Shown here: positions 12,605 through 37,630 of the stretch, in pieces
Layout: each line of letters begins with the position of its first letter
Position numbering within the stretch: position 1 is the first letter of the stretch
Virus record (IMG/VR): IMGVR_UViG_2545824712_000011
Source of the DNA: a virus
Lineage: Duplodnaviria; Heunggongvirae; Uroviricota; Caudoviricetes
Length of the DNA: 39,625 bases
Direction: 5' to 3' (one strand)
Program-made: the position numbers and the translations under genes
The notes under the pieces: model-generated
What the model was told of the DNA's origin: nothing
Databases searched by the model: none
What the model saw: only the letters and a program-made list of their open reading frames with translations

Positions 12605-13876
12605 TTACGGATTACCGAAGAACTGACCGCCCATGTGAGGGTTAAAGCACACATATGCAGGCAGTAAGTCAAAGCGCATTTTTTGCACGTTGGCATCGCC
12701 ATCTGCGTATTTATGTACGCGGATGGAGAAACCTTCATATGTTGCAACAGCAGAATCAATACTGTGCAGTTTCGGCAGTGGGATAGAGCCAAGTCCACAG
12801 AAGAACTTGTTATAGAACAGGTTTGGCTTCATTGTCTGGCTAGCAGTGCCTACTACAGATACGGCATCGCCTGCCGCTACCTGACGACTTACAGAGTTGT
12901 ACTGCGGGTTTGTAGTGTCATAAATCGGAACACCAGAAAGCGTAACCGTCACATCGCCACTGCTGTCTGAATTAGCATCAGCAGTAACCGTTGCAGTGAA
13001 GCTAATTGGTGTGGCTCCGTTATACAACGCCTGTTTGGTCTGCTGTTGCAGCCAGTAGGTATTGGTGAATTTAACCTGATCACCAGCTTTCAGAAAACCT
13101 GTAACGCTGGCTGTCGCTCCGGTCAATGTTACAGTGAACTGGTATGAGTCTTTAACTGCGTTATAGGTAACAGTTGGCTGTGTTTTGACTGTCAGTGTTC
13201 CGCCAAATGCCCCCTGCGTACGAGAGGCAAGCCCATTAGACATCAGTGCGCGAATGCCGCCAAAATTGGTTGGGATCTGTGCATTCTCCCATGCAGTACG
13301 AACCAATTGATCTGAAGCGTGCAAACCAGTCTGCGCATCAGCAAGTCGCTGTGCAGACCATGGATCCATTACAGCATAGTTTTCACCTTCATTAACGCCG
13401 AGGTCTTTCAGGAAAGATGCCGTCTGCGCAACATCAGACCATTTGGTGATTGGAGTATTGGGGCTACCAAGTGACAACGCACCGTTATTCATCATGAAGT
13501 GAGCAAGCTCTGTTTCAAGGTCGGTAACGATTCGCTGGCGAACCGGCGCGAGAATTTCTTCCAGCTGGTTAAGCTTGATCGCTTCCTCCAGTTGCTGATA
13601 TTCAACAGCAACAGTGATGTAGTTACCTACACGCCCCGTAGCTTTACCTGAGATCAGGTTGTTTTTATTTTGCCCTGAAATATCACCAGTGGGAGTACGG
13701 AGGGATGAGAATTGATGCGGACGTTTAAAGCTAACGCTATCGCCAGTGCTGGAGTTGATTTCACCTGCCAGCAACTGACGGTCTACGGTTTTCGCCAGAA
13801 CTAAATCTGACATAAAACCCGGAAGGAATTTTTTCAGAACGATTTGACTGACGTTACTGTCGAGATTGTTAGGCAT
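12605..13876 (-). CDS. Major coat protein (Sf6/CUS-3 type)
   Basis: 423 aa MPNNLDSNVSQIVLKKFLPGF...; follows scaffold gene; differs from P22 gp5 and matches the Sf6-type coat as recalled. Confidence 0.8.
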   Translation of the reverse strand: MPNNLDSNVSQIVLKKFLPGFMSDLVLAKTVDRQLLAGEINSSTGDSVSFKRPHQFSSLRTPTGDISGQNKNNLISGKATGRVGNYITVAVEYQQLEEAIKLNQLEEILAPVRQRIVTDLETELAHFMMNNGALSLGSPNTPITKWSDVAQTASFLKDLGVNEGENYAVMDPWSAQRLADAQTGLHASDQLVRTAWENAQIPTNFGGIRALMSNGLASRTQGAFGGTLTVKTQPTVTYNAVKDSYQFTVTLTGATASVTGFLKAGDQVKFTNTYWLQQQTKQALYNGATPISFTATVTADANSDSSGDVTVTLSGVPIYDTTNPQYNSVSRQVAAGDAVSVVGTASQTMKPNLFYNKFFCGLGSIPLPKLHSIDSAVATYEGFSIRVHKYADGDANVQKMRFDLLPAYVCFNPHMGGQFFGNP

Positions 13877-14785: not shown

Positions 14786-16912
14786 TTAACTCGGCATTAA
14801 GTCTGCCGGTGACTGTGGTGGTGACTGGAATTGCTGTTGTTGTGACTCGGCGACATCTTTCAGAAGGCGTATTGCCTCCATCACTGCTTTGTCATCGATG
14901 TTTCTGGCTTGAGCCAGTTTATAGACAGTGTTTGCCTGACTCTCCATCGCATCCTGCTGGGCAGTAAATGCTTTGATTTGAGTTTGAGCAGTTTCGTTAG
15001 TTGCTTTTTGCGCTTCTGCCTGCGCTGCTACCATTTGCGCCTGAGCGAGAACCATTTCAGGATTTGGCTGGCTTTGTGCTGCCATTTGCGCCTGTTGAAC
15101 AATCTGCTGCTCTTTCTCATTGCGTGGTTTTGCAATACCAGATATCAGCAGTTGGTTTCGGTTGTACTCTTTGAAGTCATCAAGGCCTTCGCCATCGATA
15201 TTGTCCAGAATAATACCCTGAATTGCCTGGCGCATTGGGTCTGTTGGAAGCATAGAGCTAAGGACATTTGTCAGTACAGAAACCGTTGCATCACGTCGTG
15301 CTGTGTAGCTTGGTCCAACATCAACCGTCACATCGTATCGACCGACAGAAAGGTCATTTAACGCAACAACAGCCCCTGTTTGCCTGTCAACAACCTGTGC
15401 GCTCAGGACAGCGATATCATCACTTCCATCTTCGTTAACGATGCGCACTTCACGTTCTGAACCGTACACTTCACGCGCCATTGACAGCCATACTTCACCA
15501 GCGCGTTTAAGACTTTTCGCCATATTGTCCAGATAGATAAACGAAGCCATATCTGCTCTGTTCATCAAGTTGTTAACCGTTTCCTGAGCAATATTACTTG
15601 GCATCTGCTGCATGGCCTGACTGCCGCCTGTAACCTCCTGAATATCAGCACTGGTTTGCTGTAGTAATGCAGCCAATGCCTGATTCATAACCGCAGGCTG
15701 TGTATATCCTGCCGGGGTAGCTCCAGCGATAATGTTGCCAGATTTATCTCTCACTTCGCGCAACGGCAAGAACGCTGGGCGTTTCTTGTTGCGAGCCTCC
15801 CAGTGCTTCTCAAGTCCACGAATTTGCTCCATGCCAACTATAGGGATCTGACCGGGGTCTTGCGCTGCAGTATCAGCCAGCATTGAAACCTGAAGGTTGT
15901 ACAAACGCTGTGGATCCATTGCTTTTGCAATGTGCCCTTCGACACGCTCAATGTCATCAATGAACCAGCGTTTTCCATAAACCGGGATGAGGGGGATATG
16001 CTCACCAGGAATACGTCGAGGTTTCTCAAGGAAACCATCACCATCCACTACGGATACATACACACGACGGCGCTTCACTGAGCGCCTTGCCACTTCCTGA
16101 AATCCAGCTATTGCCAGTTCATCTTCAATATCTTCAACCTGATCACTGTCGTATGTTGCAATCTCTCCAGTGATTGGATGTCGATAACTGATGACGTCAA
16201 CAGACTCTTTACGAACTTCGTAATACTTCGCTATGTAAATAACATCTGCACCAAACCAGTTATATTCCCAACTGGTCATAGACGTTACATCCAGAGAAGC
16301 AGGAGGTTTCTTTCCGTATTCAGCCTCATATTTTTCAGGTGACAACGAATACATACAGAACGCCCACAACGCGTCAGATTTGTCGTACTTCTTAGCGTCA
16401 GGGTCAAACCACACAGAGCGCGACGGGTCGTATATTGGTTCAATAGCAATACGCTGACGATCGTCCATGGGGTCGTATTCATTGACCAGCATCGACGTCA
16501 AACGGAAGCAACCGAAACCACCAGTAGCAGCGTCGTCAAATGCATTATCGCAAGCCTCACCGCCATCAGTTTCTTCGTAGTCAGCACGGAACAGACCATT
16601 TAATTTATTGGCTAACTCTTCGCTTGCCTCTCTGTCACCAGGACGAAACTTAACGGTGATTCTGTTATTGCGGTATTCTGCAATGATGCGGTTAAGTTCA
16701 GTTGCTACCTTATTGATTTCAAACTTAGGATACTTCTCGAACTGCTCATCAAGCTTAGTTCCAGCCGCCGTTGCTCCTTCCCATTGACCTCCGGGGACAC
16801 GAGCAAACCTCGTAGCTTCAATGCACTTTTCGCGCACTTCCTTCTGTGGAGAATAGGCGCGGTCAAACCTGAGCATGATCCGCTCATGTTTTTTCTCTAA
16901 TGTCTCTGCCAT
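14786..16912 (-). CDS. Portal protein
   Basis: Start MAETLEKKHERIM...; central region (YYEVRKESVDVISYRHPITGE..., GEHIPLIPVYG) resembles P22 gp1; directly downstream of terL. Confidence 0.85.
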   Translation of the reverse strand: MAETLEKKHERIMLRFDRAYSPQKEVREKCIEATRFARVPGGQWEGATAAGTKLDEQFEKYPKFEINKVATELNRIIAEYRNNRITVKFRPGDREASEELANKLNGLFRADYEETDGGEACDNAFDDAATGGFGCFRLTSMLVNEYDPMDDRQRIAIEPIYDPSRSVWFDPDAKKYDKSDALWAFCMYSLSPEKYEAEYGKKPPASLDVTSMTSWEYNWFGADVIYIAKYYEVRKESVDVISYRHPITGEIATYDSDQVEDIEDELAIAGFQEVARRSVKRRRVYVSVVDGDGFLEKPRRIPGEHIPLIPVYGKRWFIDDIERVEGHIAKAMDPQRLYNLQVSMLADTAAQDPGQIPIVGMEQIRGLEKHWEARNKKRPAFLPLREVRDKSGNIIAGATPAGYTQPAVMNQALAALLQQTSADIQEVTGGSQAMQQMPSNIAQETVNNLMNRADMASFIYLDNMAKSLKRAGEVWLSMAREVYGSEREVRIVNEDGSDDIAVLSAQVVDRQTGAVVALNDLSVGRYDVTVDVGPSYTARRDATVSVLTNVLSSMLPTDPMRQAIQGIILDNIDGEGLDDFKEYNRNQLLISGIAKPRNEKEQQIVQQAQMAAQSQPNPEMVLAQAQMVAAQAEAQKATNETAQTQIKAFTAQQDAMESQANTVYKLAQARNIDDKAVMEAIRLLKDVAESQQQQFQSPPQSPADLMPS

Positions 16913-16914
16913 GT

Positions 16915-18327
16915 TTACCAACCGGAGGATGAGGGGACGTATATTTCTGTTTCTTCGCGGACCAATGCCGGGCAATGCATACACATCATCAGCGCATCAG
17001 CCAGGTTAGGAGATGGAATACCGAGCTTCTGCTTCATTTCGACCTTAGTCATTAGCTCCAGCTTCCCGTTGTTATTGAATTTGCGCTGAATCTGCGTCAG
17101 TTCTGCAAACAGCTTCTCCAGCATCTTCTCGCCTATCGCTTCTTTGTCGAAACTCAGCATGTCGTCGGGGTCTGCATACTCACCGTGGACAACCGCCCGA
17201 TATGTCAGATACAGCCTGTCAGCCAGCGCGTAATAGAATTGCGCTCGCTTATTACGGAACACATCGCCAATAGTGCGAACGTTGTCGCCCTGCACGACTT
17301 CATCAGCCCATGCTCCGGCCTGATATGGTGCACCTTCATCGAATGGCGATTCGCTGCCCTTGAACATCGTGGCGGTGATTTTCTTGCCGGAGAACGCTTC
17401 TGTTGTCTGTCTGCGTAGCCCGGCACCAACACCATCACCATCCCACAGGTAATGGTCAGCGCCGTCTTCAATCGCCAGCGAAGTAGCCCAATCAGCGCCC
17501 TCGTTGATGTCCATCAGCAGACCTTCGGCAATACGCTTAACTACCGAACCGTGACGCGATGCGTAACCTTTAGCATCTGGCCCTGTATCTGATGGATCAT
17601 GCGCAGAGACAACAGCGCCTTTCGCTTTCCATCCGAGTTTCTTGTGCGCATCGGTTGCGGCTTCAAGCCATTCACGTTTGATGATTGCCATATCACTTGC
17701 GCTCACTGGCTCACCAAGCCAGATGTGACGATACAGTGTCGGATTTCTGCGTTTGCACTCTTCCATCTCCAGACGGAGAACTTCAGGAAAGTGCGGGTTG
17801 TCGGTGTAGTTCACCGTCAGCAGACAAATATCATCGGGAGGATTTACAACGAATCGCTGATAGGTATCGTCGAGGATGTTTTTCGGGTTGAAGCTCACCC
17901 ATATTTCGGAAAATGGCTTGCGGATGGTTGGTATCAGGATATCCCATGATTCCTTCGTTACCGCTTCCGCTTCTTCCACCCAGCAGATATCAATGCCTTC
18001 GAGCGATTTAATCTTCGTCGGGTTGTTTTTGATGCCGTAGAACATGAACTCAGCATTCGTTCCGAGATGACGAATCATGGAACGCTGAATTTCAAACTCA
18101 GCCGTATACCCTTCACGCTCTATGGTGTCTTCAAGCAGCCGGATTACCGAATCGCTGATACTGTTTTGCAGTTCACGAGCACAGAGAATACGCACTGGCT
18201 GCCGACGCGCCGCTTCAACAAGCAGTCTCGCAATTGCCCATGATTTACCGCTACCTCGACCGCCTTTGGCGACTTTGTAGCGATGCGCCTCAATGAACGG
18301 TTCAAAGATAGGATTAATCGAGGTCAT
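16915..18327 (-). CDS. terL: Terminase large subunit
   Basis: Walker A KGGRGSGKS; 470 aa as in Sf6 gp2. Confidence 0.9.
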   Translation of the reverse strand: MTSINPIFEPFIEAHRYKVAKGGRGSGKSWAIARLLVEAARRQPVRILCARELQNSISDSVIRLLEDTIEREGYTAEFEIQRSMIRHLGTNAEFMFYGIKNNPTKIKSLEGIDICWVEEAEAVTKESWDILIPTIRKPFSEIWVSFNPKNILDDTYQRFVVNPPDDICLLTVNYTDNPHFPEVLRLEMEECKRRNPTLYRHIWLGEPVSASDMAIIKREWLEAATDAHKKLGWKAKGAVVSAHDPSDTGPDAKGYASRHGSVVKRIAEGLLMDINEGADWATSLAIEDGADHYLWDGDGVGAGLRRQTTEAFSGKKITATMFKGSESPFDEGAPYQAGAWADEVVQGDNVRTIGDVFRNKRAQFYYALADRLYLTYRAVVHGEYADPDDMLSFDKEAIGEKMLEKLFAELTQIQRKFNNNGKLELMTKVEMKQKLGIPSPNLADALMMCMHCPALVREETEIYVPSSSGW

Positions 18328-23164: not shown

Positions 23165-23344
23165 CCTTGTTTTCCTCGCACGTTCTCTAAGCCACCGGAT
23201 ATCCCACAGGTGAGCCGTGTAATTGAAGGTTTTTACGTCAGATTCTTTTGGGATTGGCTTTCGTTTATTTCTGGAACGCTTCGTTGGAAGGTATTTGCAG
23301 TTTTCGCAGATGATGTCGGTGATACTTCGTCGCTGTCGTCTCAT
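23162..23344 (-). CDS. ninE: NinE
   Basis: 60 aa [23 protein letters not shown]...; ATG overlaps methyltransferase stop. Confidence 0.8.
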
Positions 23345-23868
23345 GCCGCCCTCCTGACGCCCTGCCCGATCGCCATCAATGCCGCTTTGGATACGGTAGT
23401 AAACATCCGTCGAGGACTGATGAACGGTCGCCAAATCAGCAGCATTGAGCCTTTACTGTTTCCCTTCTTCTCCAGCCCTGTCGATGGTTCGATAAAATTA
23501 ATCCGTCCATCAGTGATGATGCGAACTTCGTCAACACTCTCCAGAGCCTTGCTGAACCATCCGACTGACATATCCTCTGGCACAAGCATAACTACCGTCT
23601 GTCGCTGTTGTATGCACTGCTCAGCGGCTTTTTCCACCCACGGCCTGATATTGCTGTACGGTGGGTTATTCCAGATTGCACCGTGGCTTACCCACTCAGA
23701 ATTGAGCGCGTCGTCGACCTCAGTTAGCCAGTGAGCGCACAGAGCGTTTTTGTCGCTCGCTGCCGAATCCAGCCAGAATCCAAACTCAATATCCAGTGCA
23801 TCAAAAAGCCAAAGCGGCGTTTGCCAGCAGTCCTTGTCGTGTGCTGGCGTATTTGATTTGATAGTCAT
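23341..23868 (-). CDS. Orphan DNA N6-adenine methyltransferase (phage Dam-like)
   Basis: NPPY catalytic motif (WNNPPYS); start [25 protein letters not shown] typical of small phage N6A methyltransferases; no adjacent restriction gene. Confidence 0.75.
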
Positions 23869-24305
23869 GCAGCCCGGTCTCCCCATCTCGCTTTCCACTC
23901 CAGAGCCAGTCGCGCTTCGTCTGACCACTTAACGCCACGTTCTGTACCGAATGCCTGTATAAGCTCTAATATCTCCGCAAATTCGCTTACACGCATCCTG
24001 CTGGTTGACTGGCCTATTACCACAAAGCCATTCCCGGCAAGGTTAGGAACAACGTCCTGCTGCTTTAATGCTGCGGTAAACACACACTTCCAGCTTTCTG
24101 CATCCAGCCAGCGACCATGCCATTCAACCTGACGAGAGACGTCACCAAGGCAAGCCCAAAGCTTTCTGTTTTGGTCTAAGCTGCGGTTGCGTTCCTGAAT
24201 GGTTACTACGATTGGTTTGGTTGGGTCTGGAAGAATTTGCTGTACTGCGTGAATAGCGTTTTGCTGATGTGCTGGAGATCGAATTTCAAAGGTTAGTTTT
24301 TTCAT
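23865..24305 (-). CDS. ninB: NinB
   Basis: 146 aa MKKLTFEIRSPAHQQNAIHAVQQILPDPTKPIVVTIQERNRSLDQNRKLWACLGDV... as lambda NinB. Confidence 0.9.
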   Translation of the reverse strand: MKKLTFEIRSPAHQQNAIHAVQQILPDPTKPIVVTIQERNRSLDQNRKLWACLGDVSRQVEWHGRWLDAESWKCVFTAALKQQDVVPNLAGNGFVVIGQSTSRMRVSEFAEILELIQAFGTERGVKWSDEARLALEWKARWGDRAA

Positions 24306-24319
24306 GACTTCCCTCTCCC

Positions 24320-24352
24320 CCAAATAAAAAGGCCTGCGATTACCAGCAGGCC
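24320..24352 (-). terminator. tR2-like intrinsic terminator between helicase gene and ninB
   Basis: Minus strand AGGCCTGC-N8-GCAGGCCT followed by TTTTTATTT. Confidence 0.65.
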
Positions 24353-24381: not shown

Positions 24382-26847
24382 TCAGAATCCTCCTTTCTTC
24401 TTGGACTGCGGTTCCTCGCGTTCACGGCGGCGCATTTCAGCAGACTGTTGGTCTGTGTCATAAATAGCGCCATTTGCCTGAATGCAATACACCGTGCCGG
24501 TATTGCCATGACGATTGAGACGAAGGATTAGTTCGGTTTCACCAGGTGGAACACTGTCATCAAAAGCACCTTCACGATGGATCCCAACCCAATAATCGCA
24601 ATCCTGTTCAATCTGCCCTGTATCTCGCGAGTCACTTGGTAATGGGCGTTTATTGGTTCGGCTTTCCAATGCGCGGTTAAGCTGCGTCAGAAGCACAACA
24701 ACGCAATCAAGCTCTTTGGCAAGGTTCTTCAGTCCTTTGGTGATCATGCCGTAAGCAAGGTCGTTACGATCGGCTTTCTCAGCGGTCATTAGTGTCAGGT
24801 AATCGACCAGAATCATCCCAACACATCCTTTTTCTCGCTTGATTCGACGGCTTTCGCTGACGATTTGAGCCAGAGATAATCCAGGCGTGTCGTCGATGTA
24901 AAGCAGGTCGATTTCACTCAAGCGATTGGCTGTTTCGATCGCCCTGTTGAAGTCACCATCGTAATCACCCTGATAGCCGTCATCGGCGTCATTTGTCGCC
25001 GGAAGGTAAAAAATATTCGGGTTAACACCAGACTTCTGCCCTACCAGTTTTTCCAGTATCTGATCACCTGGCATTTCAAGGCTGAACATCAAAGCGGGCT
25101 TTTTCTCATGCACTGCGCAATTGATTGCCATCTGGCTGTATAGCGTGGTGTTGTGGGTTAGAATGTATCCGTCAGTTGCATACAAATGTCTCTCGTGGGA
25201 TACCATGATGCAAATGCACTCTTCACGTCCAATATACTCAACCGACGTGATAACAGGCGCACTTGTTTTGATGCGTTTTGCAGTGAATTTTTGCTTCAGG
25301 CGTGGAGATTTTATGTGTGATAGAACCTCATCAGGCAACCTGATTGCGCAAATATGGGCATCCATACCTTTGCGCATTTCTCCCTTATAACTGAATTTCG
25401 GCTCCTGTTTGGTTGTCATACGACACACGCCACCAAGAGAATGCACCAGCCGCTTTACACCATCTGACAGGAACTTGCTTGCCGAGCTAAAGCGCAGGGC
25501 ATTATTTCCTTCAACCCAACCATCGGTTTCAAGTAATCCGCATAGAACATCAATACGAGTTTTCTTATCAGCAGAAAAAATAATATCTGGGATAATTTTA
25601 ATCTCTGACATCCGGCCGTAGATACCAAGCCGTTGCATAACCCGCGTAAGAGATAATTTGCGGCTAAACTTGTGAGATAGGGAGTAATCGCAGCCAGAAA
25701 CATGTCTGACTTCAATATCGTCACCCACTTCAGATCTTACTCGCTCAATGATGTATGGTTCCGTCATGCTGATTCGTGGCGTACCTGCAAGATTTCCATC
25801 GCCAAGTAACGCACCTAACAGCCATGGGCTAATCCCTAAATCAACAGGCAATCCGAAGTCACCGCTAATACCAGGAACATGAATGCGGCTTTGATAGCGA
25901 ACGCATTCCATCATGTCCCGTAGGCGGCAGGTGTCTACAACATCAACGCCACCGGTAATACGGTTACTATGAATTTCCCACAAATGATCATCCGCGCAAT
26001 CAACGGTTCTTCCGTCAGAGAACGTAACTCGGTAAATATCTCGCTCCCCTTGAGGAAAAACTCCAGACACGAATGATGGTTGTCCATCCACTGATGCTAG
26101 GGAATCTCCAACACATACGTCACGAAATGTTGTCCATGAACCATCAGCAAGCAAAATGCGTGAATTAAGCGGTTGCGCTTTCCCCATCTTAGGGCGAGCG
26201 CCAATGACAAACAGAGAGCCTTTCACCAGACCTTTCGGTGACAGCATCCTGTCCAGCGATGGGATCCCTGTGCTCATTCCCCGTTGTTCGCCTGATGGGT
26301 CAAATCGCTTCTCAAGGTCGCTAACCCAGTCTTCCATGACCTCACCAAATGAACGAAGGCCGCGACGCGATCCGGTTTTTGCATGGTCTGTCAGTTGCGT
26401 GAAAATCGACTGAATAGCTTCGTACTTCTGCGTTGCAGTCATTCCGTTGCGGGAATAGAGCAATTCCGTCGCTTCAGTCATGCGGTTGATGGCGTAGCGT
26501 TCCATTGCGGTTTCACGAACCTGCATTGCATAGGCAACGATGTTTGCGGCGCTTGGCGTGTTCTTTGCGATCTCAGCGATATAAGCAAAACCGCCAACAG
26601 ACGCCGTTAATGATTTGCGCTCCAGTTCATCGAAAAGCGTCAGCCCATCTACTGGCTTTTGCTCCCGGTGCATTCTGGTTATTTCATCGAAAATGATTTT
26701 GTGTGGTCGGCTGTAAAATGAATCAGGCTTCAGCATCGCCAGAACTTTCCGGACGCGCTCACTGCTGTCATCATCCAGAAGCAATCCACCAATAACCGCC
26801 TGCTCTGCCTCGATGCTATGGGGCGGCGCATAAAAATTATCGGTCAT
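24382..26847 (-). CDS. Replicative DnaB-like helicase (P22 gene 12 / lambda P position) interrupted by an intein
   Basis: DnaB N-terminal domain (PHSIEAEQAVIGGLLLDD), Walker A GARPKMGK split from TTLYSQMAINCA...KPALMFSLEM by a 343-aa insert, C-terminal RecA-like core. Confidence 0.85.
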   Translation of the reverse strand: MTDNFYAPPHSIEAEQAVIGGLLLDDDSSERVRKVLAMLKPDSFYSRPHKIIFDEITRMHREQKPVDGLTLFDELERKSLTASVGGFAYIAEIAKNTPSAANIVAYAMQVRETAMERYAINRMTEATELLYSRNGMTATQKYEAIQSIFTQLTDHAKTGSRRGLRSFGEVMEDWVSDLEKRFDPSGEQRGMSTGIPSLDRMLSPKGLVKGSLFVIGARPKMGKAQPLNSRILLADGSWTTFRDVCVGDSLASVDGQPSFVSGVFPQGERDIYRVTFSDGRTVDCADDHLWEIHSNRITGGVDVVDTCRLRDMMECVRYQSRIHVPGISGDFGLPVDLGISPWLLGALLGDGNLAGTPRISMTEPYIIERVRSEVGDDIEVRHVSGCDYSLSHKFSRKLSLTRVMQRLGIYGRMSEIKIIPDIIFSADKKTRIDVLCGLLETDGWVEGNNALRFSSASKFLSDGVKRLVHSLGGVCRMTTKQEPKFSYKGEMRKGMDAHICAIRLPDEVLSHIKSPRLKQKFTAKRIKTSAPVITSVEYIGREECICIMVSHERHLYATDGYILTHNTTLYSQMAINCAVHEKKPALMFSLEMPGDQILEKLVGQKSGVNPNIFYLPATNDADDGYQGDYDGDFNRAIETANRLSEIDLLYIDDTPGLSLAQIVSESRRIKREKGCVGMILVDYLTLMTAEKADRNDLAYGMITKGLKNLAKELDCVVVLLTQLNRALESRTNKRPLPSDSRDTGQIEQDCDYWVGIHREGAFDDSVPPGETELILRLNRHGNTGTVYCIQANGAIYDTDQQSAEMRRREREEPQSKKKGGF
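25150..26178 (-). other. Intein (343 aa, Ala1 ... THN) with LAGLIDADG homing-endonuclease domain, in helicase P-loop
   Basis: Insert between GK and T of Walker A; block A-like RILLADGSWTTFRDV, block B DHLW, two dodecapeptide motifs WLLGALLGDGN and VLCGLLETDGW, C-terminal YILTHN followed by Thr. Confidence 0.8.
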
Positions 26848-27727
26848 CGTGTTCACCCTCACGAACTTTCAGGTAGGTATTGTCGTTAAGCAGGAAATCA
26901 AATCCCTTTTTGTGCCAGACGGTTCCGCGTTGATGGTTTGGGCGTTCTTCGAACATCCATCGGCAATTTTCGCCTACGTAGCTCAAATAATTTCTCCAGT
27001 CCTGCATCGTGAACCCATGCCCGTCAAGCTGGCGGGTTATCACTCCGGCTTTGCGCCAGAACGTTCGGATCTGGTTTTTACGCTTGTCATTCAGTGCGCG
27101 GATTCTTGGCGCTTCAGGAAGGATTTCGTGGTAAGCATCGACAACATCCTGACAGCTAACGGAAGGTTTTTTCTTGTCAGACTTTTTGTCTGCTGTGGCA
27201 CTCTCTAATACGTCAGTATTAGAGATATTATTTATATTATTGTTTATGGACAACCGTTGGACAACCGTTGGACAATCTCCGCTGAGAGCCGCGCCATTAC
27301 TGGTGTTTGCGTTGGACAACCGTTGGACAACCGTTGGACAATTTTTTGCCTGAAAATCGTCATATTTAACGATTGTAAACAGGCTAAATTTCTTCCCCAT
27401 CGAGCAAATATTAAGCATCCCTTTCGACTCAAAAGTCCGTAATAAGCTCCGAACTTTGTTGTCGGGGATGAATGTTTCTCTGACCAGCGACGGGCGTCCA
27501 GTTATCATCTGACCGCGATCAACAGTTATCGGACCGATATCCGTATTGACGACAGTAGATTCGTGATTAGCCTTGAGGATTAAGTGAAGCCAAAGATGTA
27601 CTGCCTGAGAGTCCTTATAGAGCCTGCTGTCCATAAACTGGCGGTGTATAGAGACATACCCCATACTGGATGCCTCCTGATGTTGTACAGGGTTATGCCT
27701 GTAATCAGCTAACTTAACGACGCCCAT
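26837..27727 (-). CDS. Replication initiator (lambda O / P22 gene 18 analogue)
   Basis: Position between cII and helicase; contains the iteron array in its coding sequence. Confidence 0.7.
   Translation of the reverse strand: MGVVKLADYRHNPVQHQEASSMGYVSIHRQFMDSRLYKDSQAVHLWLHLILKANHESTVVNTDIGPITVDRGQMITGRPSLVRETFIPDNKVRSLLRTFESKGMLNICSMGKKFSLFTIVKYDDFQAKNCPTVVQRLSNANTSNGAALSGDCPTVVQRLSINNNINNISNTDVLESATADKKSDKKKPSVSCQDVVDAYHEILPEAPRIRALNDKRKNQIRTFWRKAGVITRQLDGHGFTMQDWRNYLSYVGENCRWMFEERPNHQRGTVWHKKGFDFLLNDNTYLKVREGEHDDR
27244..27346. repeat. Origin iterons: two clusters of three 11-bp direct repeats GGACAACCGTT, followed by A+T-rich stretch
   Basis: GGACAACCGTT GGACAACCGTT GGACAATCTCC at 27248-27280 and again at 27314-27346; AT-rich 27341-27400. 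Confidence 0.8.
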
Positions 27728-28562: not shown

Positions 28563-29213
28563 ATGAAAACTCAATTGATGGGAGAGCGCATTCGCGCTCG
28601 GAGAAAAGAACTCAAGATCAGGCAGGCCGCACTTGGAAAGATGGTCGGCGTGTCTAATGTTGCCATATCTCAGTGGGAACGCTCTGAGACAGAGCCAAAT
28701 GGAGAGAATCTTCTCGCCCTGGCTAATGCGTTGAAGTGTTCCCCTGACTATCTGATGAAAGGAGAGGAAAGTCTTTCAAATATTGCCTATCACAGTAGGC
28801 ATGATCCAAGAGGGTCATACCCTCTGATTAGCTGGGTGAGCGCAGGATGCTGGATGGAAGCTGTAGAACCATATCATAAGCGTGCAATAGATAACTGGTA
28901 CGATACAACCGTAGACTGTTCAGAAGATTCGTTTTGGTTGGACGTGAAGGGAGACTCAATGACGGCTCCGGCCGGTCTCAGTATCCCTGAAGGAATGATA
29001 ATACTCGTCGATCCTGAAGTAGAGCCGCGTAACGGGAAACTGGTAGTTGCAAAGCTCGAAGGAGAAAACGAGGCAACTTTCAAGAAGTTAGTTATTGATG
29101 CAGGCAGGAAGTTTCTAAAACCACTTAACCCACAATATCCGATGATCGAGATCAACGGAAACTGCAAAATCATCGGCGTAGTTGTCGATGCAAAACTAGC
29201 AAACCTTCCATAA
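28563..29213 (+). CDS. c2: Prophage repressor C2 (P22 type, LexA-like C-terminal domain)
   Basis: MKTQLMGERIRARRKELKIRQAALGKMVGVSNVAISQWERSETEPNGENL... near-identical to P22 C2 as recalled. Confidence 0.95.
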   Translation: MKTQLMGERIRARRKELKIRQAALGKMVGVSNVAISQWERSETEPNGENLLALANALKCSPDYLMKGEESLSNIAYHSRHDPRGSYPLISWVSAGCWMEAVEPYHKRAIDNWYDTTVDCSEDSFWLDVKGDSMTAPAGLSIPEGMIILVDPEVEPRNGKLVVAKLEGENEATFKKLVIDAGRKFLKPLNPQYPMIEINGNCKIIGVVVDAKLANLP

Positions 29214-36179: not shown

Positions 36180-36303
36180 TCCCGCCGTACACTACCGTCT
36201 ACCATTGTCTATAAACCCCATGTAACCATATAAAAATAAAGAGATTTTATTCTCATGACGTCCATTGCCGTCTATTGAAATCAAGTAAATCTATGGGGCA
36301 TAA

Positions 36304-36343
36304 TTGGGGGCATTGCTGGTTCGATTGTAAATGTGCCCCCAAT
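36304..36343 (+). promoter_or_regulatory. Stem-loop (9-bp stem TTGGGGGCA/TGCCCCCAA) ending 1 nt before int ATG
   Basis: Read directly; 21-nt loop contains GGTTCGATT. Confidence 0.6.
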
Positions 36344-37630
36344 ATGTCCAGAAATACCCTCAACAAATTAACAGACCGTCAGTGCAAAGCAGCTAAGCCA
36401 CGAGACAAAACTTATAAATTGTCTGATGGTGGTGGTCTTTATCTTGAAGTATCCCAGACCGGGTCGAAGTATTGGCGAATGAAGTATCGCCGCCCATCAG
36501 ATAAGAAAGAAGACAGACTTGCTTTTGGTGTATATCCAACCATTAGCTTACAAGACGCCAGAGAAAAACGAGACAACGCCAAAAAGTTGTTAGTCAAGGG
36601 GATAGATCCCAAAGCAGAGCAAAGAGCAGCAAAAGCAGAAGAAAAAGGTGCATTCACTTTTGAGACAATAGGACGTCAATGGGTTGAAAGCCACCAGATG
36701 TGGAACGAAGCCCACCGAAAACGCGTACTTAGAAGCCTTGAAATGTATATTTTCCCTCACATTGGCACTTCGGATATTCGCAAACTGGAGGCGATGACAA
36801 TTTTACCTTTGTTTAAGAAGGTAGATGACGCCGGGAAACACGATACAGCCAACCGACTTAAACAACGAGTTAAGGACATCATACATAGCGCCCGTCTGAG
36901 CGGCATTAAGACAGAAATCATCACGAATGATCTCGATGTCCGGTTAATGCAATATGAAACTAAGCATCATGCCGCACTACATCCCAGAGATTTACCAGAC
37001 TTTTTCACTCGATTGGGCAGCTTTAAAGGTAATCCTCTTACCCGCCTTGCCATTGAGCTAACCATGTTGACCTTTGTTCGTTCAAGCGAGTTAAGGTTTG
37101 CCCGTTGGAAAGAGTTTGACCTTGATCGGGCTGAGTGGATTATCCCTAAAAAAAGAGAGCCTATCGATGGTGTGAGGTTTTCCACCCGTGGCACAAAGAC
37201 GGGAAAAGACGAACATATCGTGCTTCTTAGCCGTCAGGCTGTTTCTATTGTAAAGCAGTTGAGAGAACTAAGCGGAAGCTACGATGTTGTGTTTCCGAAT
37301 GAAAGAAACACCAAAGGCGTGATGAGTGAAAACACGGTAAACAAGGCATTACGCTTAATGGGCTATAACACGCAAGAAGACGTAACTGGACATGGATTCC
37401 GTGCCACAGCCTGTAGTTCCCTGATGGAGTCCGGTTTGTGGCAGGAGGACGCAGTAGAGCGCCAGATGAGCCACAAAGAATATAAAGACGTTAAAAGAGC
37501 CTACAAGCACAAGGCTGATTACTTAGAAGAGCGCAAACTAATGCTTCAATGGTGGGCAGATTATCTGGACGCCAATCGAGAAATACACATAAGCCCTTAC
37601 GAGTTCGGAAGGAGAACACGCCGTGACTAA
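36344..37630 (+). CDS. int: Tyrosine integrase, P4 family
   Basis: N-terminus MSRNTLNKLTDRQCKAAKPRDKTYKLSDGGGLYLEV... and C-terminal HGFRAT...VKRAYKHKADYLEERKLMLQWWADYLD typical of P4-like integrases. Confidence 0.9.
   Translation: MSRNTLNKLTDRQCKAAKPRDKTYKLSDGGGLYLEVSQTGSKYWRMKYRRPSDKKEDRLAFGVYPTISLQDAREKRDNAKKLLVKGIDPKAEQRAAKAEEKGAFTFETIGRQWVESHQMWNEAHRKRVLRSLEMYIFPHIGTSDIRKLEAMTILPLFKKVDDAGKHDTANRLKQRVKDIIHSARLSGIKTEIITNDLDVRLMQYETKHHAALHPRDLPDFFTRLGSFKGNPLTRLAIELTMLTFVRSSELRFARWKEFDLDRAEWIIPKKREPIDGVRFSTRGTKTGKDEHIVLLSRQAVSIVKQLRELSGSYDVVFPNERNTKGVMSENTVNKALRLMGYNTQEDVTGHGFRATACSSLMESGLWQEDAVERQMSHKEYKDVKRAYKHKADYLEERKLMLQWWADYLDANREIHISPYEFGRRTRRD

Follow-up and report, generated by a model that had tools for sequence, protein, structure and literature searches.

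A putative class 3 intein with a LAGLIDADG homing endonuclease in the P-loop of a DnaB-family helicase of P22-like Escherichia coli prophages

What interrupts the ATP-binding loop of the replicative helicase in a P22-like prophage of Escherichia coli? The stretch analyzed here, IMG/VR record IMGVR_UViG_2545824712_000011 (39,625 nucleotides; hereafter the window), is a P22-like/lambdoid E. coli prophage and is read on the minus strand; the Walker A motif (P-loop) of its phage DnaB-family helicase is split between the Lys and the Thr of GKT by 343 amino acids (aa). A preliminary description of the sequence had taken this segment for an intein carrying a LAGLIDADG homing endonuclease. Our analysis indicates that the intein is real and, as far as its sequence tells, apparently active; we consider it, with a probability of roughly 85%, to be a bifunctional class 3 intein at “site b” of the helicase, the DnaB P-loop position known as a classic intein site (PMC4760082, PMC6195587). 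The gene and its parts are as follows, a slash marking splice junctions here and below.

24382-26847, minus strand: helicase precursor gene, a phage DnaB-family replicative helicase of 821 aa with the intein and 478 aa after in-silico splicing.
26179-26847, minus strand: N-extein, 223 aa, with the DnaB N-terminal domain and the first part of the ATPase domain, ending in the Walker A sequence ...GARPKMGK.
25150-26178, minus strand: intein, 343 aa, Ala1 to Asn343, 1029 bp in frame; AlphaFold2 predicted local distance difference test (pLDDT) score 91.5, match to PI-SceI with a query TM-score (TMq) of 0.72-0.75.
24382-25149, minus strand: C-extein, 255 aa plus stop, beginning with Thr+1 (25147-25149, codon ACC), which is the P-loop Thr of GK/T; the remainder is the DnaB_C ATPase domain.

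The boundaries given in the preliminary description were confirmed to the base. The insert runs from AQPLNS to YILTHN and separates GARPKMGK from TTLYSQ, with junctions of GARPKMGK/A and LTHN/TTLYSQMAINCA; at the DNA level the junctions are unambiguous (...ATG GGG AAA / GCG CAA ... CAC AAC / ACC ACG...). Of 5426 complete E. coli genomes, 357 gave one uninterrupted alignment, at 95-99.5% identity, with a 400-nt query made of 200 nt from either flank with the insert deleted in silico; so did 87 phage records, including HK542, ECP1, mEp506, Stx2 phage 86 and VT2-Sakai. Because the junction is contiguous in these intein-less alleles, the segment is a precise insertion, 1029 bp long and in frame, that separates AAA (Lys) from ACC (Thr). 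When the insert was deleted, Pfam DnaB_C matched in one stretch (profile positions 1-244 of 255, 204 bits), compared with two when it was present.

The host protein belongs to the phage DnaB family: NCBIfam TIGR03600 (phage_DnaB) matched the precursor in two stretches with 558.7 bits, above the curated cutoff of 498.65, and the Pfam matches to DnaB and DnaB_C correspond to the N-terminal DnaB domain and the RecA-like C-terminal domain. The open reading frame extends from a GTG start over 24382-26862 on the minus strand. The true start is likely the ATG at 26847 (MTDNF...), the start used in phage HK542 (gp41) and by the NCBI Prokaryotic Genome Annotation Pipeline (PGAP); it keeps an 11-nt overlap with the O-like gene, as it does in both of these. 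The gene has the O-like initiator on one side and NinB on the other, an arrangement shared with HK542 and HK022-type phages, and the exact 821-aa protein has been deposited at NCBI from E. coli P0299483.1 (END68147.1).

Class 3 inteins are defined by the absence of Ser, Thr or Cys at position 1 together with a Trp at B:12, a Cys at F:4 and a Thr at G:5, the WCT triplet (PMC2807308, PMC3196547), and their +1 residue is usually Thr or Ser (PMC2807308, PMC3196547). The positions bearing on this definition, and the domains of the intein, are listed below; the domain limits are approximate and were taken from the secondary structure of the predicted model.

25864-26178, minus strand: HINT N-terminal lobe, about aa 1-105, with Ala1 of block A at 26176-26178 and block B (GRTVDCADDHLWEI) containing His65 at 25984-25986 and Trp67 at 25978-25980.
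25279-25863, minus strand: LAGLIDADG homing endonuclease domain, about aa 106-300, based on Pfam LAGLIDADG_3, Foldseek and conserved acidic residues.
25792-25824, minus strand: LAGLIDADG motif 1, WLLGALLGDGN, with Asp127.
25516-25548, minus strand: LAGLIDADG motif 2, VLCGLLETDGW, with Asp219.
25150-25278, minus strand: HINT C-terminal lobe, about aa 301-343, with block F (EECICIMV) and block G.
25210-25212, minus strand: Cys323 (F:4) in the HINT C-terminal lobe; Cys321 is F:2.
25156-25158 and 25150-25152, minus strand: Thr341 and Asn343 of block G, with His342 between them.

The motifs quoted in the preliminary description are all present in the insert: the block A-like segment RILLADGSWTTFRDV (aa 7-21), DHLW (aa 64-67), the two dodecapeptides WLLGALLGDGN (aa 119-129) and VLCGLLETDGW (aa 211-221), and EECICIMV (aa 319-326). 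Splicing blocks A, B, F (EECICIMV...HLY) and G (LTHN/T) are present, with a C-terminal His-Asn followed by Thr. The Ala1 codon GCG directly follows AAA (Lys), leaving no Ser, Thr or Cys at position 1, and this boundary is fixed by the intein-less alleles. In D-H65-L-W67 the Trp stands at B:12, two residues past His B:10; Cys323 occupies F:4 and is invariant in all full-length relatives; and Thr341-His342-Asn343/Thr+1 provides Thr at both G:5 and +1. The class 3 signature with Ala1 that the preliminary description had recognized is thus present in every position when aligned to characterized class 3 inteins.

In an alignment of the window intein with MP-Be, the intein of mycobacteriophage Bethlehem, and four further relatives, His65, Trp67, Cys323, Thr341, His342 and Asn343 were among the invariant columns, and Ala1 stood opposite Pro1 of MP-Be, both residues being non-nucleophilic. 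A phmmer search against all PDB chains returned inteins only, headed by the engineered gp41-1_WCT and the DnaB inteins of Mycobacterium smegmatis (Msm DnaBi1; 6bs8) and M. chimaera (Mch DnaB1; 6rix, 6riy), followed by PI-SceI, so that the best natural sequence matches are class 3 DnaB inteins. In these alignments Cys323 lay opposite the Cys at residue 118 of the 6bs8 chain, which is catalytic in Msm DnaBi1 (PMC6195587), and opposite the block F Cys of Mch DnaB1 (6rix); His65 and Trp67 lay opposite the HxW of Msm DnaBi1, Mch DnaB1 and gp41-1_WCT. Class 3 membership is supported by these alignments of sequence and by those of structure.

Block F holds a second cysteine, Cys321 (F:2), which forms a Cys-x-Cys pair with Cys323 (window 25210-25218). 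The pair is common to all three enterobacterial phage lineages described below and is also found in the relative P0010 and in the PhoH-type relatives except P0014, and the cellular-DnaB, P0012, P0014, UvrD-type and MP-Be relatives lack it. A role of this pair in redox or metal sensitivity is conceivable.

The two LAGLIDADG dodecapeptides noted earlier are both intact: their helices end in Asp-Gly, and Asp127 and Asp219 are conserved in the relatives. Pfam LAGLIDADG_3 matched the intein with 25 bits (cutoff 22.5). The AlphaFold2 model, built with 24 homologues, had a mean pLDDT of 91.5 and a predicted TM-score (pTM) of 0.91. With the whole model as query, Foldseek searches of the PDB returned PI-SceI, TliVMA, PhoVMA and PI-PfuI (E values down to 3e-16, TMq 0.72-0.75). 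The splicing domain matched Msm DnaBi1 and Mch DnaB1 with target TM-scores (TMt) of 0.77-0.85, in keeping with a HINT fold, and the central domain matched I-DmoI and I-Tsp061I (TMt 0.51-0.59, E values from 2e-6 to about 3e-5) as well as the endonuclease domains of PI-SceI and PI-PfuI. The predicted model contains the pair of alpha-beta-beta-alpha-beta-beta-alpha folds of a monomeric LAGLIDADG enzyme. The best whole-model matches, PI-SceI and the VMA-type inteins (1vde, 1lwt, 7qsu), share with the window intein a HINT domain combined with a monomeric double-LAGLIDADG endonuclease; they differ in being class 1 inteins (Cys1) with an extra DNA-recognition region and archaeal or yeast V-ATPase hosts, at 14-17% identity.

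A search of a large protein database yielded 28 relatives of the intein. Most of those with the N-terminal junction present begin with A/S-Q-P-L-(D/N), and all whose C-terminal part is present show x-C-I...T-H-N/T. Their hosts are cellular-type DnaB (GRPSMGK/AQPLDA...), PhoH-like proteins (RGR/SQPLDA or RGR/AQPLNS), a UvrD-like helicase (GSGK/A...) and FtsH-like proteins. Six of the PhoH-like hosts (P0009, P0013, P0015, P0016, P0019 and P0022) carry inteins with the full WCT triplet and yet Ser1 (RGR/SQPLDA...), and a sibling of these, P0014, has Ala1 (RGR/AQPLNS...). The PhoH-type set is, on its sequences, a natural Ser1/Ala1 polymorphism within one WCT lineage; an N-terminal nucleophile has been mentioned for only three WCT inteins (PMC2807308).

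Megablast of the intein DNA against 50,697 phage records gave no match. At the protein level, tblastn found 414 records of isolated phages at less than 60% identity, the best being about 50 Shiga toxin (Stx) 2a phages (Min27, phi24B, TL-2011a and others) with 46% identity over the whole intein. The lineage itself is known from prophages and metagenomes only, with isolated phages supplying relatives below 60% identity. The closest of these is the intein in the P protein of Stx phages (Min27, phi24B, TL-2011a) and Shigella flexneri prophages, which is 46-49% identical over its full length. Like the window intein, it has Ala1 (ACPLNEP...), DHLW, ECLCIMV, ATHN/T and two LAGLIDADG motifs in 342 aa, and it is inserted after a Walker A Lys (GHGK/T) in enterobacterial lambdoid hosts; unlike it, it resides in a toprim primase with a gp4-like helicase, a non-orthologous replication protein. 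The phi24B intein was noted in 2012, without class assignment or mobility analysis (PMC3430580), and the ShP-Sfv Primase inteins of S. flexneri prophages appear in PMC2807308. Similarity between the homing sites of the window helicase and the Min27 primase-helicase was considered and rejected, as the flanking DNA is unrelated apart from matching Lys and Thr codons. There is also a third lineage (P0001, L020), which shares about 50% identity with the window intein as well as with the Stx-phage inteins and lies at the site used in the window, in a helicase with a C-extein closely similar to that of the window. From these three, we recognize at least three class 3 intein lineages, about 50% divergent, at GK/T of two non-orthologous replicative helicases in enterobacterial lambdoid phages.

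The class 3 prototype, MP-Be, resembles the window intein in length (341 versus 343 aa), in the identical numbering of His65 and Trp67, in a non-nucleophilic residue 1, in its block F Cys (320 versus 323), in Thr-His-Asn/Thr, in a two-motif LAGLIDADG domain and in residing in a phage ATPase. It differs in sequence (25% identity), in having Pro1 where the window intein has Ala1, in its actinobacteriophage host and in its junction, VSQDQ/TKNTF rather than the GK/T P-loop, within a protein that is not a DnaB-family helicase. We located it, with the junction VSQDQ/TKNTF as published, in the 904-aa gp11 of Bethlehem, just upstream of the portal gene; this host protein has been identified as a large terminase, TerL1-c (PMC5050341). 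The statement in the preliminary description that the class 3 signature was first described in a mycobacteriophage DnaB thus stands as to the phage and to the prototype's name, “MP-Be DnaB”, but not as to the host protein, since gp11 is portal-adjacent and not of the DnaB family. Bethlehem gp52, which we had also considered as the prototype, was rejected because it carries a Cys1 (class 1-type) intein. The protein (L003 4578-6296) is annotated as “phosphoesterase”; its intein (HEGNHD/CSWTNARAV...) is without annotation in the deposited record and is apparently the recombination directionality factor (RDF) intein (gp51) of PMC5050341.

The DnaB inteins of M. smegmatis and M. chimaera (6bs8, 6rix, 6riy; PMC6195587, PMC7664689) share with the window intein the site b position in the DnaB P-loop, the use of the P-loop Ser/Thr as +1 nucleophile and the WCT triplet. 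Unlike it, they are mini-inteins without an endonuclease in the essential cellular DnaB of actinobacteria, with low identity in the splicing domain, and their redox and zinc control has been shown experimentally. The preliminary description had further stated that inteins are not routinely described in prophage helicases of this kind. In part this is incorrect, given the Stx-phage P intein (PMC3430580); for the window-type helicase it holds, as our literature search, whose scope did not include InBase-derived name lists, found no paper on such an intein. To our finding, this is the first class 3 intein described for a DnaB-type helicase of P22-like/lambdoid coliphages.

Is the intein mobile? 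Of the 5426 complete E. coli genomes, 18 carry it, none at less than 99.4% identity, and it is full length in 12 IMG/VR contigs at 99-100% identity; the corresponding protein cluster at 90% identity has 449 members from E. coli, Salmonella and Shigella. Between the window and E. coli NT1F10, the exteins differ at 33 of 1437 nt and the intein at 2 of 1029. Two further loci (L013 and L014) carry an intein of 99.4% nucleotide identity to that of the window (6 of 1029 nt differ) within exteins of 64.7% (N-extein) and 64.9% (C-extein) nucleotide identity (62-68% aa) and of different lengths, with the first mismatches 13 nt upstream and 9 nt downstream of the intein. The allele of E. coli ET846 (L022) has the same extein lengths as these two (663 and 735 nt). 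A more distant copy (L017; 81% nucleotide and 87% aa identity) occurs in a third type of helicase allele. In ET846 (NZ_CP100895.1), two places match the intein DNA, the L013-type helicase allele of L022 being one of them; the other may be a further prophage or a fragment.

The codon of Thr+1 provides an additional footprint. Every intein-bearing allele examined has ACC; ACG stands in HK542 and VT2-Sakai and in each of the 110 window-type alleles without an intein that were sampled. Intein-less alleles that resemble L013 and L017 have ACC natively. The ACC in the window is most readily explained by a co-conversion tract longer than 3 and shorter than 9 nt, probably left by homing from an ACC-type donor. 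For the homing site, which the preliminary description had proposed to define by comparison with intein-less alleles, a core of 20 shared bp can be put forward.

25138-26190, minus strand: inferred homing-site core, 20 bp reading AAGATGGGGAAA/ACCACGCT once the intein is removed, the only flanking bases common to all three intein-bearing allele types.

At this core, the intein-less window-type allele reads ...AAA/ACGACGCT. Ratios of nonsynonymous to synonymous substitution (dN/dS) were estimated by the Nei-Gojobori method between the window and L017 inteins, giving 0.06 overall at a dS of about 1.2, with 0.057 for the HINT N-lobe, 0.070 for the endonuclease and 0.031 for the HINT C-lobe; since dN/dS is low over both, the splicing and the endonuclease domains have both been under long-term purifying selection. 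A 99.4%-identical intein within 65%-identical exteins, a sharp break in identity, the ACC footprint and an endonuclease dN/dS of 0.07 together form a population signature that fits homing. These comparisons are evidence of mobility and suggest that the intein recently spread horizontally into diverged helicase alleles; this goes beyond the preliminary description.

By analogy with MP-Be (PMC2807308), Dra Snf2 and the Msm/Mch DnaB inteins (PMC6195587, PMC7664689), the following course of events can be proposed. The 821-aa precursor would be translated with a split ATP-binding loop and would not be a working helicase. With Ala1 providing no nucleophile at position 1, Cys323 would attack the Lys(-1)-Ala1 bond, assisted by His65 and Trp67, to give a thioester-branched intermediate, from which the N-extein would move to the side chain of Thr+1, the P-loop Thr. 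Cyclization of Asn343 would then release the 343-aa intein, and an O-to-N acyl shift would yield the 478-aa helicase with an intact GKT P-loop and restored ATPase and helicase function. The free intein would be expected to act on helicase alleles without an intein, carried by lambdoid or P22-like phages that are co-resident or co-infecting, with a cut around AAGATGGGGAAA/ACGACGCT, and repair templated on the intein-bearing copy would copy the intein in.

Whether the intein is more than a passenger, acting both as a sweeping homing element and as a redox- or metal-conditional switch on prophage replication, is a tentative proposal that we regard as rather doubtful. Endonuclease attack on the helicase genes of competing intein-less phages or prophages in one cell may amount to marker exclusion between phages, and the three lineages of about 50% divergence may be competing for the GK/T site in two non-orthologous helicases. 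By analogy with mycobacterial DnaBi1, the thiol-dependent chemistry of class 3 may tie prophage replication after induction to the redox or metal state, and the Cys321-x-Cys323 pair could contribute to such conditional splicing.

Several points weigh against an active, mobile class 3 intein. Splicing, the branched intermediate at Cys323 and DNA cleavage are all read across from homologues. At position 7 of block B, where Thr is usual, there is Ala; MP-Be can do without its equivalent residue, Ser62 (PMC2807308). The WCT triplet alone, grafted onto an intein of class 1, gave no splicing (PMC7664689), so the signature is necessary and not sufficient. No NCBIfam model of intein N- or C-termini matched, and Pfam returned LAGLIDADG_3 just above its cutoff and a sub-threshold Hom_end_hint. 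Truncated or rearranged copies (P0002, L019) indicate that some copies are decaying, and the sharp break in identity could in principle have come from recombination other than endonuclease-driven homing.

Some of these points would also suit a dead or decaying intein, with the helicase a pseudogene in a defective prophage, which is in effect the view of RefSeq. In all three intein-bearing E. coli genomes inspected of the 18 (L001 5332-7797, L022 1838-4264 and L023 1832-4297), PGAP annotated the N- and C-exteins as two “incomplete” pseudogene fragments, missing the C-terminus and the N-terminus, respectively; the fragment ends coincide with the intein boundaries, and the 1029 bp between them carry no feature. 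Two relatives point the same way. In P0002 (NCBI/Logan, a 235-kb contig), the N-extein and intein residues 1 to about 117 (99% identical) are fused to the middle of a tail-associated gene (PF11134), equivalent to joining window position ~25828 to ~11515. This implies a deletion of about 14 kb in a related prophage, with loss of the endonuclease domain and the C-extein as well as of the nin, lysis, terminase, portal and coat genes. L019 (positions 2-523, IMG/VR UViG_2565956616_000001) matches intein residues 170-343 only, at 99% identity; as the stored locus begins at the match, this may be a 5′-truncated intein or a limit of storage. Class 3 look-alikes can moreover be inactive, as is Arsp-FB24 (PMC3196547). 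Against this, no interruption of the 2466-nt reading frame was seen in the window or at any of the 13 other loci examined, a set with three extein backgrounds. None of the catalytic positions has been lost, and Cys F:4, the residue missing from the inactive Arsp-FB24, is among those kept; dN/dS is 0.06 over a dS of about 1.2, and the intein has recently spread into diverged alleles. The PGAP call, for its part, arises because the helicase model matches in two stretches, not from any lesion. We therefore regard a dead element as very improbable in the window, and the degenerate copies elsewhere fit the invasion-and-decay cycle of homing elements.

It is very improbable, too, that the intein functions by a route other than class 3, either by direct attack of Thr+1, as in class 2, or with Cys321 (F:2) as the nucleophile. 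Ala1 also occurs in the class 2 KlbA inteins (PMC2807308), and a block F Cys-x-Cys like that of the window is seen in the Min27, L020, PhoH-type and P0010 relatives. Class 2 inteins, however, have no WCT triplet and are known only in KlbA (PMC2807308, PMC3196547), whereas the Trp, Cys and Thr of the window intein align to MP-Be residues found essential by mutagenesis; and Cys321 is not conserved in several of the relatives, in contrast to the invariant Cys323. The remaining idea, anticipated in the preliminary description, that the segment is an ordinary accessory domain of a helicase subfamily and is never removed, has in its favor only the database name “helicase DnaB” given to the 821-aa protein (its sole GenBank name) and is practically negligible, being refuted by homologues without the intein that run colinearly through the site (the insert is missing, with a seamless junction, from about 95% of near-identical helicase alleles), by the HINT and LAGLIDADG fold matches, by the splitting of Walker A at GK/T and by the same type of element in unrelated primase-helicase, PhoH, UvrD-like and FtsH-like hosts.

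The prophage that carries this intein looks complete from the integrase through the tailspike, and beyond the integrase, on its right, the DNA matches E. coli chromosomes with 100% identity. Its layout is marked by the following genes.

403-2217, minus-strand reading: tailspike, with DNA-transfer proteins next in order.
12605-13876: coat.
14786-16984: portal.
16915-18327: large terminase, followed by the nin region and the replication genes.
28563-29213, plus strand: repressor.
36275-37630, plus strand: integrase.

Two neighbors of the helicase gene have features of their own. The O-like replication initiator gene (26837-27727, minus strand) contains, at 27236-27353, overlapping 11-bp direct repeats (GTTGGACAACC) in two groups of three that stand 44 bp apart and encode the duplicated peptide CPTVVQRLS; from their sequence they look like lambda-like origin iterons inside the initiator gene, immediately upstream of the intein-bearing helicase. 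On the other side, an open reading frame for a Dam-like N6-adenine methyltransferase (NPPY motif; phrog_111) shares 64 nt with the 3′ end of ninB if the earliest GTG available to it is taken as the start (23341-23928 and 23865-24323 for the pair, minus strand); the real start of the methyltransferase is probably further downstream.

No new principle follows from this locus, because good descriptions already exist of class 3 inteins, of inteins with a LAGLIDADG domain and of the DnaB P-loop site, and the window intein is closely paralleled by the Stx-phage P intein and by the mycobacterial DnaB site-b inteins. Its interest lies elsewhere. E. coli is the standard intein-free host in intein work, and its prophages do carry native class 3 inteins. 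Because PGAP, in the three of 18 genomes inspected, splits the helicase and leaves the intein unannotated, and because standard profiles miss it, calls of prophage completeness and censuses of inteins will be biased. The locus also offers an unusually clean natural snapshot of homing, with 65%-identical alleles, breakpoints at 9-13 nt and a single-base co-conversion footprint, and the lambdoid phage system around it is genetically tractable, so that homing, marker exclusion and conditional splicing are open to direct test. A full-length, mesophilic class 3 intein native to E. coli with a defined empty site may serve as an experimental model. The intein is of value mainly for its clean natural evidence of ongoing homing, for a host that is tractable and for a misannotation that is consistent in the RefSeq genomes inspected.

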